Source of the DNA: an uncultured Verrucomicrobiae bacterium
GTDB taxonomy: Bacteria > Verrucomicrobiota > Verrucomicrobiia > Chthoniobacterales > JAFAMB01
Reading direction: 5' to 3'
Assembly (NCBI GenBank): GCA_963837955.1
Contig: CAWIPH010000002.1
Location: forward strand, 1,984,001-2,048,000
Length of the DNA: 64,000 nucleotides
Part shown: in pieces, positions 46,013-51,118 of the stretch
Numbering within the stretch: the stretch's first letter is position 1
Layout: each line of letters starts with the position of its first letter
Made by a program: the position numbers and the translations under genes
Notes under the pieces: generated by a model
Told to the model about the DNA's origin: nothing
Databases searched by the model: none
The model's input: the letters and a program-made list of their open reading frames with translations, nothing else

Positions 46013-46561
46013 ATGTGCACCCTGAAATCTTCCGATTTGTTTGGCGCGCATCGGAGCGCCTTTTCGACCGCTGCCGCGATCCTGGTCATGATTGGAGCTA
46101 TTTCCGTCGCTGCCGGGGGTGATGCCGGGAACATACTGCGCTCAAACCCTGTGGTGAATCCGAATCAGCAGGCGAATGCGATAAATCGTCTCGCGCAGAC
46201 AAATCAGGCGGTGCAAGCAATGCAGAATACGACTAATGCCCTTCGCAGCCTGAATAATCAGCAGACCAGCCCCATACGCGGCGGTGGCGTGATCGTCAAT
46301 GCGAGCCAGACCCCGAACGCGGTACCGAGCCAGATCCTGGCTTCGTTTCACGTCAATGGCAAAACGTATGTGATCGATCGCAACGGCATCATTTTCGGCG
46401 GTCCGCGGCAGATAAATACGCACGAGTTGACTGGTGCGGCCATGGGAGCAACGAGCGATTGGATGACGGAAGTCGCGAAAAAGCAACGCGCTGAGACTGC
46501 GCCGAAAAAGGTTCCGTCGCTCGTGAGAGCCGAGGTGCTGGGGTACGGCGCTAAGCCCTGA
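46013..46561 (+). CDS. miniature TpsA paralog (N-terminal fragments joined to the C-terminal tail)
   Basis: AGNILR, LAQTNQAVQAMQ, PSQIL..YVIDRNGIIFGG..IN and VPSLVRAEVLGYG match both ends of the 4089-aa protein. Confidence 0.8.
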   Translation: MCTLKSSDLFGAHRSAFSTAAAILVMIGAISVAAGGDAGNILRSNPVVNPNQQANAINRLAQTNQAVQAMQNTTNALRSLNNQQTSPIRGGGVIVNASQTPNAVPSQILASFHVNGKTYVIDRNGIIFGGPRQINTHELTGAAMGATSDWMTEVAKKQRAETAPKKVPSLVRAEVLGYGAKP

Positions 46562-46600
46562 CCGGGCGCTGGTGATTGGTGATCGGTAAGCAGTAAGCAG

Positions 46601-46757
46601 TCTTGCGCTCTTTCAGAGCGGACGCATTGGTTTGGCGCTACCCGGGGTTGCGCAAAGCCTCCACCCCGGGCTGAGTCCTCTAACGCCTTCCGACTTCGCC
46701 AACCATTAGCTATGGTTCGACGTCACAGAAGGGCTTCGTCGGACAGGTCGGCGTATC
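46601..46757. repeat. REP family D arm carrying a nested 59-bp mini-element
   Basis: TCTTGCGCTCTTTCAGAGCG...CCCGGGGTTGCGCAAAGCCTCCACCCCGGG...ACGCCTTC[insert]GGCGTATC. Confidence 0.8.
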
Positions 46758-46772
46758 TGGTGTATCCGACAA

Positions 46773-46833
46773 GCCGGGCGGTTTTGTTGTGACCATTGAC
46801 AACGCGACGGCATACCCCTGGCATCCGGCTCTC
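46773..46833 (-). repeat. right copy of the 61-bp inverted repeat
   Basis: See 45679-45739. Confidence 0.8.
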
Positions 46834-47231
46834 GCTTACTCCTTACTCCTTTCTGCTTACCGATCACAAATCAACGATCACCGCTGCATCGTCACCGCGT
46901 CAGGGGTTGATACGCCGAAGGCGTCAAAGGACTCAGCCCGGGGTGGAGGCTTTGCGTAACCCCGGGTAGCCCAAAAAATGCGTCCGCTCTGAAAGAGCGA
47001 AAGAAGTCTTTAGGGAGCTCGGTTAAGGCAGCAACAATCCGTAGAAGCCAACGCTGGGTGAGAGGATCTAGAAGGGGCGTTCATGCCCTCGATGGAGCCG
47101 GTAATTGAGCGCCGTTCTGCCAGATGGTCTTGCGCTCTTTCAGAGCTTCAACCGGCTGCGCGGGTGTTTTTCACCGTAGGAACATTCATTTAGTGGCGTA
47201 GTGGAGTCTTCCTTCGCTAAGAGGAGGGATG

Positions 47232-47418
47232 CAACGAGGAGGCTTGGCAAGTAATCCGCTTGCCCAGTGGTGTTTAGCAGTAACTAAACCCGCCTTTCAG
47301 CATGGAATCAGACGCTACGATTTTTTCACTGGTGGCTGGAAAGCACTGTGGTGCTTGCAAGACCCCGTTTATGAGAATGTCTCGATCTTTCGCCGTCTGA
47401 GCCACGCCTCCTTCGTTG
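47232..47418 (+). ncRNA. candidate IS110 bridge RNA (target-binding and donor-binding loops)
   Basis: Outer stem 47232-43/47406-18; loop 1 closed by CCAGTG/CACTGG contains CTTTCAG (target); loop 2 closed by GTGGCT/AGCCAC contains TTATGAGA (donor). Confidence 0.7.
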
Positions 47419-47434
47419 GCTAATCAACGAGAGA

Positions 47435-48844
47435 ATGAAACAACACGAGAAGACAAAAACCAAGTCCGAAGCGCCAAAACCGTTACACGAGCCAGAGCCC
47501 GATGCGGCTGGCATTGATGTAGGAGCCAATGAAATCTGGGTTGCTGTAGCGCCTGATCGTAGCGAGAAGCCAATCAGAAGATTTGGTGCATTTACTCAGG
47601 AGCTCAAGGCCATTGTCCAGTGGCTGCGAGATTGCGGGATTCGTACCGTAGCAATGGAATCGACCGGTGTTTACTGGATTCCACTCTATCAGCTTCTGGC
47701 CGATGCCGGACTGAAGGTCTGTTTAGTCAACGCCCGGCATGTCAAAAATGTACCGGGTCGCAAAAGTGACGTGGGCGACTGTCAATGGTTGCAGTACCTC
47801 CACAGCGTGGGTCTATTGCGGGCTTCTTATCGGCCCGATCAAGCCATCTGTGCCGCGCGGAGCATTTACCGCTATCGGCAAAATCTGCTCACCCAGGCTG
47901 CTCAGCATCTCCAGCATATGCAGGCGGCCTTGGATCAAATGAATATTAAGCTCCACCACGTCATCGACGATCTGACGGGCATGACGGGGCTGGCGATCAT
48001 CGAGGCCATTTTAGAGGGTGAGCGAGACCCACACCAATTGGCCAAGCATCGCGATCACCGAATCAAAGCTTCCCAACAAACCATCGTCAAAGCCTTGGAG
48101 GGCGATTGGCGCAGCGAACACCTCTTTGTTTTAAAAGTGGCCTGGGAAAATTGGAAGCAGGCTCAACACCAAATCCAAAAATGTGATCAACAGCTGCTGG
48201 AATACACCCGCCAATTGGAAGCCTGTACTACTCTGGCCAAGCCGATCAAGACCGTGCGCTTGAGCACGCAAGCAGCCGGCTCTCATCCCGTTGCCCGGCC
48301 CAGCAAACCGCGCAGGAAAACCAGCAAGAATGAACCCCCGGGGCCTTGGCGAGAAGAACTCTCTCGCTTCTTTGGCGTTGATCTGACCGCTATCCCAAGC
48401 ATCAGCGTTCTCACCGGTATTACCCTGATGACCGAGCTAGGTAATGACCTGGGTGCTTTCAAGAGCGCACACCACTTTAGTTCCTGGCTCTGTCTGTGTC
48501 CGGATAACGAGACCAGCGCTAGCAAAGTGCTTCGCCGAGCGACCCGTCGCAGCCAAAATCGGGTTCGACAGGCATTGCGCATGGCTGCCTCTTCCTTGCA
48601 CCATGATAAGAGCTACCTGGGAGACAAATACCGACGCTTGCGCGCCAAACTAGGTGCTCCCAAGGCTATCACCGCCATGGCCCACCAATTAGCCAGAATC
48701 CTCTGGCACCTCATCGTTCATCGAGTCCCCTTTGATCTGACCATCTTTGCTGCTTACGAAAAGGCCAATCAGACCCGACGTCTCAAACGACTCTCCTCTG
48801 CTGCCCGCCAGATGGGCTACCAACTGACTCCTATCGCTACCTGA
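47435..48844 (+). CDS. IS110 family transposase/recombinase
   Basis: DEDD RuvC-like domain (GIDVG, MESTG, KSDVGD) and C-terminal Tnp domain (SWLCLCP..ETSAS, AITAMAHQLARI); intact. Confidence 0.95.
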   Translation: MKQHEKTKTKSEAPKPLHEPEPDAAGIDVGANEIWVAVAPDRSEKPIRRFGAFTQELKAIVQWLRDCGIRTVAMESTGVYWIPLYQLLADAGLKVCLVNARHVKNVPGRKSDVGDCQWLQYLHSVGLLRASYRPDQAICAARSIYRYRQNLLTQAAQHLQHMQAALDQMNIKLHHVIDDLTGMTGLAIIEAILEGERDPHQLAKHRDHRIKASQQTIVKALEGDWRSEHLFVLKVAWENWKQAQHQIQKCDQQLLEYTRQLEACTTLAKPIKTVRLSTQAAGSHPVARPSKPRRKTSKNEPPGPWREELSRFFGVDLTAIPSISVLTGITLMTELGNDLGAFKSAHHFSSWLCLCPDNETSASKVLRRATRRSQNRVRQALRMAASSLHHDKSYLGDKYRRLRAKLGAPKAITAMAHQLARILWHLIVHRVPFDLTIFAAYEKANQTRRLKRLSSAARQMGYQLTPIAT

Positions 48845-49264
48845 GACCGATCTCCGCTGTGAACTCCACGCTAAACTCCACCATGTTCCTTATGAGAGCG
48901 GGCGCGTTTTTTTGCGTTACCCGGGGTTGCGCAAAGCCTCCACCCCGGGCTGAGTCCTTTAACGCCTTCGGCGTATCTGGCGTATCCGACTCCTGGCGTC
49001 GGCTCCTCGCTTACTGCTTACCGATCACCCATGACCAATCACTGACCACGGATCACCAATCCCGACCACCCGATGACCGATAACCGATCACGGATACACT
49101 GAATCACTAATGGCCGACCACCGATCACGGCGGAACGCCATTCCACCGGACAACTAGACAAGTTCGAAACTTGATCCAATCTCGATAGCGTACGCCATGG
49201 AAGATTATCAAACATGCGGGCTGTGTCTTCTGTGGTGAGGTTAACGGGTAAGAATCAGATATCG

Positions 49265-51118
49265 ATGCCATTCGACGTTTTCATCTGCTACGCGATGGCG
49301 GACAAGCTGACAGCCGACGCAGCATGTGCTGCTCTTGAGGCTTCTGGAATCCGATGCTGGATGGCGCCGCGCGATGTGTTGCCGGGGATGGATTATGCCG
49401 AAGCTATCATCGAAGCAATCGAACATTGCCGAGGTATGCTGCTGATTTTTTCGTCAAGCGCAAACCGATCCAATCAGGTAAAGCGCGAGGTCGAACGAGC
49501 GGTGCACCATGGAATCCCGATCATCCCGTTTCGGATCGAAGATGTACCTCCTTCGCGAACGCTCGAATTTTTTATCAGCGCGCCTCATTGGCTCGATGCG
49601 CTAACTCCGCCGCTCGAGGAACATTTGAAGCGGTTGAGTGCGATGATGCAAGTGTTGCTAGATCGAAGGAGAGCCGAGCTACCGGAGCAGCCAAGCCGTC
49701 CTGGTAGTGGTCAAGGGATTTCCGCTAAATCTGCAAGTGTCCCGCCGGCGACCTCTCGCACCTCCGGAGGTAGGTCACTCGTTTGGATTGTGATTGGTGG
49801 GTTAGCGGTTGTGCTGTTAGGCGGGTTTTTCGTTATTGCGTTGCTCGTGCTTTTCTTTGCCCGAGGTCCTGCACCTACTTCCGCTTCCAAAGAGGGACCG
49901 AACCCCGTGCCTTCGGCGATCGGGCAGGTGACACCATCGCCTATCCAACAGGTGTCGCCGGGTCCGCAGCCGCGGGCCTCGATCAAGGGGGAAGCCCAAA
50001 CGCTACTGAACGAAGGCGATCGAGCCGAAAAGCAGGGGCAATATCAAAGTGCGCTGGTGAAGTACAACGAGGCGCTTGAGCTCGATCCGGATTCGGCGGA
50101 CCTCTACAACGCGCGCGGCATTGTCTATTACGGTATGCATTCCTATGATTTAGCGATCAAGGACTACGATCAAGCGGTTCGGCTGAGTCCGCAGGCCTAC
50201 TACGCTTTTTCTAACCGAGGGAACGCTCTCGGCCAACTCGGGCGTCATAGCGAAGCGATCAAAGATTATAACGAAGCGATTCGGATCAAGCCGGATTACG
50301 CCTACGCGTTTAACGGCCGAGGCCTGGCTTATTATAACCAAGGCGATAGCGATCGAGCCATCACCGACTACACAGAGGCGATTCGACTAGATGCCAAGTA
50401 TGTCAACGCCTATAACAACCGCGGAAATGCGTACGAAGCGAAGCAGCAATACGATACCGCGCTGGCCGATTTCAATCAGGCCATCCAACTTGATGGCAAT
50501 TACGCGTATGCCTACAACGGCCGGGCAATAGTCTCTTATGATCGCGGCGAGTACGACAAAGCGATCGCGGACTATACGATAGCAATCCGGCTCTCGCCTA
50601 AATACGTTGCGGCCTATACCAATCGAGGCAATGCCTACGAACGAAAACGCCAATATCAAGCAGCCATAGCCGATTATAACACTGCGATCGGTCTCGACGG
50701 TAAATACGCCTCCGCCTACAACGGGAGAGGAATCGTTTACGACGACGAGCACCAATATGAAAAAGCGATTGGTGACTATGCCGACGCGATTCGTTTGAAT
50801 CCGAATTACTCCTACGCTTACAACAATCGGGGGAATGCGCTATGCAGTCTCCGTCGATATGATGAAGCGCTCAATGACTATAACGACGCGCTGCGCATTT
50901 ATCCAAACTACGTATATGCCTACAATGGGCGCGGGGTTACCTACTACAACAAAGGTGACTATCAGCGAGCGATTGCTGATTATACGCACGCGATCAGTCT
51001 CAATCCAAATTACGCTCTAGCTTACAAGAACCGCGGATTGGCTTACGAAAAGACCGGCGCGAAGGACAAGTCCAAAGCAGATTTCGCCGCGGCCCATCGG
51101 CTGGATTCGAGCCTGTGA
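49265..51118 (+). CDS. TIR domain - TM helix - 11 TPR repeat protein
   Basis: DVFICY..D, CWMAPRD..PG, SNQVKREVERA; hydrophobic WIVIGG..LFF; 34-aa repeats; start placed at MPFDVF. Confidence 0.9.
   Translation: MPFDVFICYAMADKLTADAACAALEASGIRCWMAPRDVLPGMDYAEAIIEAIEHCRGMLLIFSSSANRSNQVKREVERAVHHGIPIIPFRIEDVPPSRTLEFFISAPHWLDALTPPLEEHLKRLSAMMQVLLDRRRAELPEQPSRPGSGQGISAKSASVPPATSRTSGGRSLVWIVIGGLAVVLLGGFFVIALLVLFFARGPAPTSASKEGPNPVPSAIGQVTPSPIQQVSPGPQPRASIKGEAQTLLNEGDRAEKQGQYQSALVKYNEALELDPDSADLYNARGIVYYGMHSYDLAIKDYDQAVRLSPQAYYAFSNRGNALGQLGRHSEAIKDYNEAIRIKPDYAYAFNGRGLAYYNQGDSDRAITDYTEAIRLDAKYVNAYNNRGNAYEAKQQYDTALADFNQAIQLDGNYAYAYNGRAIVSYDRGEYDKAIADYTIAIRLSPKYVAAYTNRGNAYERKRQYQAAIADYNTAIGLDGKYASAYNGRGIVYDDEHQYEKAIGDYADAIRLNPNYSYAYNNRGNALCSLRRYDEALNDYNDALRIYPNYVYAYNGRGVTYYNKGDYQRAIADYTHAISLNPNYALAYKNRGLAYEKTGAKDKSKADFAAAHRLDSSL

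Follow-up and report, generated by a model that had tools for sequence, protein, structure and literature searches.

Bridge RNAs have been predicted for most elements of the IS110 family of insertion sequences (PMC11208160), and 86 bridge-RNA covariance models covering 32,190 loci have been catalogued (10.64898/2026.10.21.760802). In IS621, as described in PMC11208160 and PMC11208158, the left end, which precedes a DEDD/serine recombinase gene, codes for an RNA that presents a target loop and then a donor loop; each left guide has the top-strand sequence of the left target or left donor together with the core, the right target guide is complementary to that strand and reaches into the core, and the target is a repetitive extragenic palindromic (REP) sequence. 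ISPpu10 likewise inserts in multiple copies in REP hairpins and has a left-end bridge RNA (10.64898/2026.03.19.712850), and in IS1111 elements (ISEc11, ISPa11, ISKpn4), according to PMC11187229, a seekRNA carries the top-strand complement 5′ of the bottom-strand match, inverted repeats of at least 7 bp lie near the ends, and ISPa11 also targets REPs. These features recur in an element analyzed here from an uncultured Verrucomicrobiae soil bacterium, in a window that is the whole 64,000-nucleotide stretch from 1,984,001 to 2,048,000 of contig CAWIPH010000002.1 (GenBank assembly GCA_963837955.1, forward strand). With a probability of about 0.8, it is an RNA-guided IS110-family insertion sequence whose left end encodes a bridge RNA with permuted loops and whose gene encodes a DEDD/serine recombinase.

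The REP GCGCTCTTTCAGAGCGG stands intact at 46605-46621 within the window, and an insert of 1753 bp (47144-48896) divides the same REP into a left part ending in GCGCTCTTTCAG (47132-43) and a right part that restarts with AGCGGGCG at 48897, as an initial annotation made from the sequence alone had recognized. The host genome (2 contigs, 5.6 Mb, 54% G+C) holds six copies, all inserted at AG in REP-like sites with no duplication beyond the 2-bp core. Below, LT and RT denote the left and right target (flanks), LD and RD the left and right donor, and RD1 the element's first base. The right end reads CCTTATG-AG in all six copies and is followed by AGCGG (four copies) or GGCGG (two copies), while the left junction reads LT-AG-CAGCTTCAACCCGG in four of the five copies other than that in the window. 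Alignment of both ends of the copies thus gives AG as the core, a left target ending in YTTC, and CCTTATG-AG-CAGCTTC as the donor junction. The window copy is without the C directly after the core, i.e. base 1 of the element (AG-CAGCTTCAACCC in four of the five others, and C in 58 of 59 relatives), and without a second C in CAAC(C)CGG of the next hairpin. The junction CCTTATG-AG-AGCTTC first proposed from this copy is therefore one base short, and the description of the element as intact holds for its 469-aa open reading frame (ORF) and fails for its left tip. As a separate matter, in copies C2:3512622-3514469 (-) and C2:1932514-1934282 (+) the transposase is frameshifted with the first stop after codon 405, and in the former CTC replaces AGCAG at the left junction. 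There are 40 unoccupied CTTTCAG[AG]GCGG sites in the host genome (35 with A, 5 with G). The element was absent from four genomes of the same genus, and a search of 42 genomes of the family found no copies with the same guides, only diverged relatives at 74–87% identity in two other genera. In this genome it is an ordinary insertion sequence that has expanded recently, with REP hairpins serving as safe sites of insertion.

Membership in the IS110 family is clear from the gene as well as from site-specific insertion limited to the core. The ORF matches both PF01548 (DEDD_Tnp_IS110, E = 6e-22) and PF02371 (Transposase_20, E = 9e-13), scores 258 bits against NCBIfam NF033542 ‘IS110 family RNA-guided transposase’ (cut-off 140), and remotely matches the IS621 recombinase structure 8wt6 (E = 5.5e-7). 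In the IS621 alignment, which is weak so that numbering is approximate, GID and MESTG fall on the first D and the E, and S361 on the ESGSS serine. Across nine relatives D28, E75, D112 and D115 are invariant; the serine is not among the positions listed as invariant. The identical 469-aa protein is encoded by four of the six copies, with a frameshift in the other two, and the non-coding ends measure 290 bp before the gene on the left and 52 bp past the stop codon on the right.

Relatives were drawn from a scan of species genomes (12 loci, from metagenome-assembled genomes of Verrucomicrobiota, Acidobacteriota, Anaerolineae and Bacteroidales) and a scan of metagenomes (79 loci, protein identity 39–77%). 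In 83 of 90 loci a profile search detected a homologue of the left-end RNA immediately before the gene, and 77 of these 83 were aligned. Boundaries of relatives were called from the left guides, which gave element lengths of 1587–1825 bp; independent of this calling are the mismatched-locus controls for the left guides and the RT and RD signals only. Relatives on plasmids, at 42–47% identity, occur in Burkholderiales, cyanobacteria, Rhodobacterales, rhizobia and Citrobacter/Enterobacter. One of them (L122, at 105556-109236 of the Citrobacter freundii IncFIB plasmid NZ_CP086288.1) is 42% identical, shares the RNA module with guides that terminate in AA and not AG, and adjoins an IS66-family gene; relatives of this type were seen in 61 Citrobacter and 21 Enterobacter plasmid records. 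Two loci from one Verrucomicrobiae metagenome-assembled genome (L032 and L038) have 4 and 13 stops in the matched transposase frame with RNA and ends that look intact, and may be decayed copies or assembly errors.

Both proposed left guides are unique within the 291-nt left end: CTTTCAG is found at 47294 and repeats 47137-43, and TTATGAG(A) is found at 47369 and repeats 48890-97, whereas the chance expectation for a given 7-mer in 291 nt is about 0.02. Among relatives, the 7-mer of the left donor guide was found in the element's own right end in 64 of 70 loci as against 92 of 4725 mismatched-locus pairs, and that of the left target guide in its own upstream flank in 49 of 73 loci as against 133 of 5503 mismatched pairs (about 2% in controls), rising to 63 of 73 for the 6-mer. 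The eighth base agreed in only 11 of 73 (target) and 7 of 70 (donor) loci, so the left guides are taken to be 5 nt plus core. At both guide positions the A of the core is invariant and the G is present in at least 90% of the 77 relatives. The two left guides and the AG core suggested at the outset therefore stand, both guides tracking each element's own target and donor. A side observation concerns seven loci (L044, L051, L052, L063, L073, L110 and L119) whose left flank and core (such as GTTCATTAGG-AG or TTTCTTGAG-AG) look like a sibling element's right end, and whose left target guide has the sequence typical of a left donor guide; judged from these sequences, the elements seem to use the right-end junctions of related insertion sequences as their insertion sites.

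For the right target guide, each RNA column was scanned against each right-flank position with permutation controls, and a single diagonal emerged, in which columns G47262, C47263 and C47264 were complementary to RT3, RT2 and RT1 in 34, 40 and 35 of 60 loci (z = 5.6, 7.3 and 5.9), or in 37, 43 and 38 of 59 with wobble permitted. In-register 4-base complements beginning from the core G, RT1, RT2 and RT3 were present in 19, 11, 6 and 4 of 60 loci, against backgrounds of 0.9, 0.6, 0.5 and 0.4. Diagonal and complements together place the guide at 47259-64 plus C47265, which lies opposite the core G, and CUUGCC-C pairs fully with G-GGCGG, two G:U pairs included. The initial annotation had chosen CGCT (47313-16) instead, 12 nt after the left guide and with it 3′ of an inner hairpin, in a layout whose two domains were closed by CCAGTG/CACTGG and GTGGCT/AGCCAC. 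CGCT does complement AGCG in this one element, and the CCAGTG/CACTGG columns are pairable in 75.5% of cells among the 77 relatives, but CGCT occurs three times in the left end against 1.1 expected, its columns did not covary with the right flank in column-by-position scans with or without wobble, and its first letters (C and G at 47313-14) lie inside the covarying helix P2. In the first closing stem, 41 of 77 relatives cannot form the variable middle pair, and double-sided change is seen in one of six pairs, the other five having none; what looked like a stem is a conserved CAnTGG motif present twice in direct orientation, at the opening of each hairpin module. The second closing stem pairs in only 47% of cells. 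It is thus very improbable that this layout describes the RNA.

The helices that do hold were assessed on the 77-sequence alignment. P3, which closes the target loop, is paired in 94.5% of cells and varies on both sides in three of its four pairs, one of which appears as AU, GU, CG, UA and GC across relatives; P2 is paired in 83.1% with double-sided change in all seven pairs, and the bases of the loop hairpins H1 and H2 are paired in 97.7%. The score of the whole helix model was reached by none of 500 shuffles, and slid partners paired in only 31–51% of cells. RNAalifold, run on the same alignment, independently recovered H1, P2, H2 and P4, the last of which closes the donor loop straight after the left donor guide, with its pairs formed in 65–76 of 77 loci and double changes in 15 and 22. 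The outer stem P1 (47232-43/47406-18) is present in the minimum free energy (MFE) fold. On the MAFFT alignment it is only 49% paired, the stem being shifted between lineages, and it was accordingly tested by duplex energy, where P1 flanks in the 77 loci averaged -17.8 kcal/mol with their own partner versus -10.1 with that of another locus. The outer stem thus survives as first drawn, as does its enclosure of two domains, target and then donor, with limits now at 47254-47307 and 47308-47400. The fold of the whole 291 nt is not unusually stable (z = -1.49). A further helix, P2b (47318-20/47390-92), paired in 68% of cells and was replaced by P4 (47317-19/47378-80, 84–99%); the two alternative partners before the donor loop may represent a conformational switch or a weaker chance helix.

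Read 5′ to 3′, each loop comprises the closing-stem 5′ strand, a G, the right-guide position, CAnU and a hairpin GG(U)G...CCC, followed by a G, the left guide plus core, two bases, a U and the closing-stem 3′ strand. The loop order in IS621 as given in PMC11208158 is stem, linker with G, left guide and stem-loop, followed by linker with G, right guide, handshake bases, linker and stem. If the closing stem of IS621 is capped (as H1 and H2) and its distal stem-loop opened (as P3 and P4), the right guide comes before the left guide, and each loop is then probably a homologous, circularly permuted form of the IS621 loop; a conserved G after a stem precedes all four guide positions here as in IS621. 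The earlier suggestion that the architecture differs from that of IS621 was correct. Each inner hairpin is nevertheless flanked by a guide on either side, and what differs is the sequence of parts within a loop, namely right guide, hairpin, left guide. According to PMC11187229, IS1111 seekRNAs have their top-strand complement placed 5′ of the bottom-strand match, and the order is reversed in the IS110-type ISEc21, so that the present family combines the IS1111 strand order with an RNA encoded upstream of the gene and a 469-aa protein. No description of such an order for an upstream-encoded RNA was found in the literature, but the figures of PMC11208160 and the supplements of the 2026 catalogue may show it, and literature combining ‘bridge RNA’ with ‘permut’ yielded statistical uses of the word only.

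By homology with IS621, the element would be excised as a circle joining TTATG-AG to CAGCTTC, and the left-end RNA, once produced, would be held by recombinase dimers. The target loop would pair with both REP strands around AG and the donor loop with the circle junction, and strand exchange at AG would place the element between the REP hairpin loop and its 3′ arm, with no duplication beyond the core. Alternatively, the left end could be mainly a leader that regulates the transposase, with the protein picking target and ends on the DNA and the matches between RNA and DNA arising as by-products. The outer stem stops 17 nt ahead of the start codon, expression of a separate RNA is something we infer, and the targets are structured REPs, with a target stem-loop reported helpful to ISPpu10 (10.64898/2026.03.19.712850). 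A leader would not account for three segments following three DNA segments across dozens of differing targets and ends, many of the relatives' targets are not palindromes, and the family has been found by experiment to be RNA-guided (PMC11208160, PMC11187229); we regard this alternative as scarcely credible.

Several observations weigh against a bridge RNA of the kind proposed. On the commoner AGCGG sites, four of the six in the genome, the right target guide has one C.A mismatch, at RT1, and the left tip of the window copy is damaged by its two 1-base deletions. The comparative structure has a free energy of -43.0 versus -72.2 kcal/mol for the MFE fold, a gap expected only if the protein keeps the loops open. 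An Rfam scan of 46400-49300 found no family in the left end, with only sub-threshold Acido-Lenti-1 and suhB in the flanks, a scan of 47050-47500, which excludes the circle junction, for sigma-70-like promoters and terminators found no sites, and no sequencing run recorded as RNA contains sequence of the element, which is a blank only; one further run, whose RNA nature is a guess, shares a small part of its sequence words. The identity of the left guides in column-by-position scans is circular, the boundaries having been called from the guides, and the relatives are akin to one another, which inflates the shuffle statistics. Lastly, scans of all RNA columns against RD1-12, for complement and for wobble, gave no diagonal for a right donor guide, and RD-complementary 5-mers were present in the left end in 37 of 57 loci, where controls averaged 43.1. 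As far as sequence can tell, one defining interaction of IS621, that of the right donor guide, would seem to be missing or different.

Other approaches to this side of the donor were likewise negative. RD-complementary 6-mers in the left end numbered 17 against 14.1 in controls, without enrichment, and the complement of the donor-loop 5′ side was found in the junction in 18 of 52 loci against 17.2, and in the left end through 60 nt of the coding sequence in 22 of 47 against 23.0. Instead, three other patterns were detected. First, 47301-02, directly after the left target guide, matches RD1 in 58 and RD2 in 48 of 59 loci (z = 8.1 and 9.4, respectively), and these bases also track the rare tips that are not CA (TG, TA and GA). 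With RD1-2 copied there, the RNA agrees more closely with the left junction LT-AG-RD1-2 than with an unoccupied target, and by analogy with the handshake guides discussed for IS621 (PMC11208158; PMC13626964) the copy could favor completion of insertion. No column 3′ of the right guides was complementary to the last LT or LD bases at z of at least 4, as handshake-type guides would be, and a copy of RT1-2 after the left donor guide was not significant (7 versus a background of 3.6).

Second, the donor-loop 5′ side is repeated in the same sense in the left end at +20 to +31, just 3′ of a variable hairpin. Sixteen of 46 distinct 7-mers match there at 6 or more of 7 positions, six of them perfectly, whereas 200 shuffles averaged 1.09 such matches and never exceeded 5; shared 5-mers occur in 33 of 52 loci against 15.7 and shared 6-mers in 16 of 52 against 3.9, and the match spans at least 15 unrelated sequences, though it is strong in only about a third of loci. 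The window element carries TTTTTCA twice, at 47167-73 and again at 47322-28. Third, an inverted repeat pairs the right end at -4 to -12 from the core with left-end bases +29 to +43, the two arms covarying. It spans 7–10 bp, with the right arm 2–5 bp from the core and the left arm 29–43 bp inside, and is at least 7 bp long in 53 of 56 loci (mean 7.9) versus 73 of 258 mismatched pairs. The direction of wobble in this repeat, as an indicator of an RNA-DNA or a DNA-DNA role, was uninformative, being swamped by unpaired flanking positions.

It is possible, though we say so with low confidence, that the right donor is recognized through the CA after the left target guide, the same-sense match at +21 to +28 and the inverted repeat. 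The three donor-directed segments, namely the left donor guide, the RD1-2 copy and the donor-loop 5′ side, are all in top-strand sense, and the covarying inverted repeat flanks the junction on its two sides. A tentative extension, which we think rather less likely to be right than wrong, is that a widespread clade with loops permuted relative to IS621 (in Verrucomicrobiota, Acidobacteriota, Bacteroidales, and on proteobacterial and cyanobacterial plasmids at 42–47% identity) reads its donor differently, as folded or strand-separated DNA with one strand held by the RNA and not as a bent duplex; if so, guide order and the RNA-encoding end would be independent characters in the family. The RNA could, on the other hand, be an ordinary one with four guides as in IS621, in which 47320-28 reads RD by discontinuous or non-canonical pairs and the same-sense match and inverted repeat are not guides at all, being relics of duplication or protein-binding sites. 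This would be consistent with 47320-28 being the exact positional counterpart of the right target guide, with the right donor guide of IS621 itself forming an interrupted pairing in which bases are flipped out and a G:T pair occurs (PMC11208158), and with the match at +20 to +31 being found in just 16 of 46 distinct sequences. It would not account for the lack of complementarity at every pair of column and position, with or without wobble, nor for an identity to the left end that exceeds every shuffle in so many unrelated sequences, and we consider it unlikely.

Compared with IS621, then, the element with permuted loops has a structured non-coding RNA in its longer end, left guides that covary with target and donor and a complementary right target guide, and differs in having no detected guide complementary to RD, bearing an RD1-2 copy after the left target guide, and reversing the left-before-right order of guides. 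Its outer stem encloses both loops, its core is AG where that of IS621 is CT, its left guides are 5+2 and not 7+2 nt, its inverted repeat is 7–10 and not 2–3 bp, and its protein is 469 aa as opposed to about 326 aa, with similarity only at the remote level given above. ISPpu10 follows the pairing logic of IS621 with a CT core (10.64898/2026.03.19.712850). With IS1111 elements the strand order is shared; according to PMC11187229 their RNA is downstream of the gene where that of the present element is upstream, their repeats are 11–13 bp and lie 7 bp and 3 bp from the ends where the left arm here is 30–38 bp inside, and their transposases are 330–350 aa, the 469 aa found here just exceeding the 395–455 aa of the subgroup that holds IS110 itself. 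Many models in the 86-model catalogue (10.64898/2026.10.21.760802) look visibly unlike the IS621 structure yet covary with target and donor, and the present family may be among them, the catalogue text giving no guide order, nesting or core.

The element is thus a real bridge-RNA element of known kind, whose variant architecture and odd donor side are moderately interesting to specialists. The initial reading of an IS110-family element with a bispecific left end is upheld by domains and guide covariation, with two of its four guides, the core and the topology retained and its right target guide and closing stems replaced. Bridge recombinases are being engineered as programmable tools for DNA insertion, and nearly all of the design rules derive from IS621 and its near relatives. 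The present family would show, by comparison, that a two-loop RNA can accommodate loops that are circularly permuted, and it adds an AG core, shorter left guides and a donor side that departs from the scheme of four guides. If the inverted repeat and the distal same-sense match are functional, they would constitute a second mode of donor recognition, which would bear on the dispute over double-strand versus single-strand transfer.

Table 1. Features of the element, its RNA and its target, in window coordinates.
Feature	Position	Strand	Basis or remark
REP target, left half	47132..47143	+	5′ arm and loop of CGCTCT-TTC-AGAGCG hairpin; intact counterpart 46605-21
Left target CTTTC	47137-41	+	followed by left AG core copy, 47142-43
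IS110-family insertion sequence, right-hand AG core included	47144..48896	+	1 of 6 genomic copies
Right donor tip, element's first bases	47144..47150	+	AGCTTCA in window copy; CAGCTTCA in 4/5 others
Left-end hairpin, ACCCG/CGGGT in other copies; window copy without one C	47151..47165	+	sequence-variable hairpin there in relatives
Segment X, TTTTTCA	47167..47173	+	same sequence as 47322-28
Inverted repeat, left arm AGGAACAT	47178..47185	+	reverse complement of 48883-90
P1 outer stem, 5′ strand	47232..47243	+	pairs with 47406-18; MFE, duplex energy
P3, stem closing target loop, 5′ strand	47255..47257	+	pairs with 47304-06
Right target guide CUUGCC + C47265, preceded by G47258	47259..47265	+	covariation with right flank
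H1, target-loop hairpin GG(U)GUUUAG, loop, CUAAACCC	47269..47291	+	alignment pairing, RNAalifold
Left target guide CUUUC + core AG, preceded by G47292	47294..47300	+	covariation with left flank
CA, element's first two bases in relatives	47301..47302	+	column-by-position identity
P3, 3′ strand	47304..47306	+	alignment pairing
P2, 5′ strand UCAGACG	47308..47314	+	pairs with 47394-400; alignment pairing, RNAalifold
P4, stem closing donor loop, 5′ strand	47317..47319	+	pairs with 47378-80; RNAalifold
Segment J AUUUUUUCA, donor-loop 5′ side, right-donor-guide position	47320..47328	+	contains 47322-28 = segment X
H2, donor-loop hairpin	47331..47366	+	alignment pairing, RNAalifold
Left donor guide UUAUG + core AG, preceded by G47367	47369..47375	+	covariation with right end
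P4, 3′ strand	47378..47380	+	RNAalifold
P2, 3′ strand	47394..47400	+	alignment pairing, RNAalifold
P1, 3′ strand	47406..47418	+	MFE, duplex energy
DEDD/IS110 recombinase gene, 469 aa	47435..48844	+	domain and family matches
Inverted repeat, right arm ATGTTCCT	48883..48890	+	reverse complement of 47178-85
Left donor TTATG + right AG core copy	48890..48896	+	copy alignment, guide covariation
Right target AGCGGG, 3′ arm of split REP	48897..48902	+	copy alignment

Two features of the surroundings may be added. Beside each REP lies a unit of about 60 nt made up of a CCCGGGG...CCCCGGG hairpin and a GCCTTCGGC hairpin; the units at 46911-46966 (-) and 48920-48975 (+) match the Acido-Lenti-1 RNA at 23.8 and 25.3 bits, below the gathering score of 37. 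Segments of the flanks are repeated about 70 times in the host genome, so the REP and its unit form a composite repeat. On the 3′ side of the element, a 634-aa ORF at 49214-51118 (+) has, judged by eye from the translation, a TIR-type-looking N-terminus, then a hydrophobic stretch and numerous TPR-like repeats.

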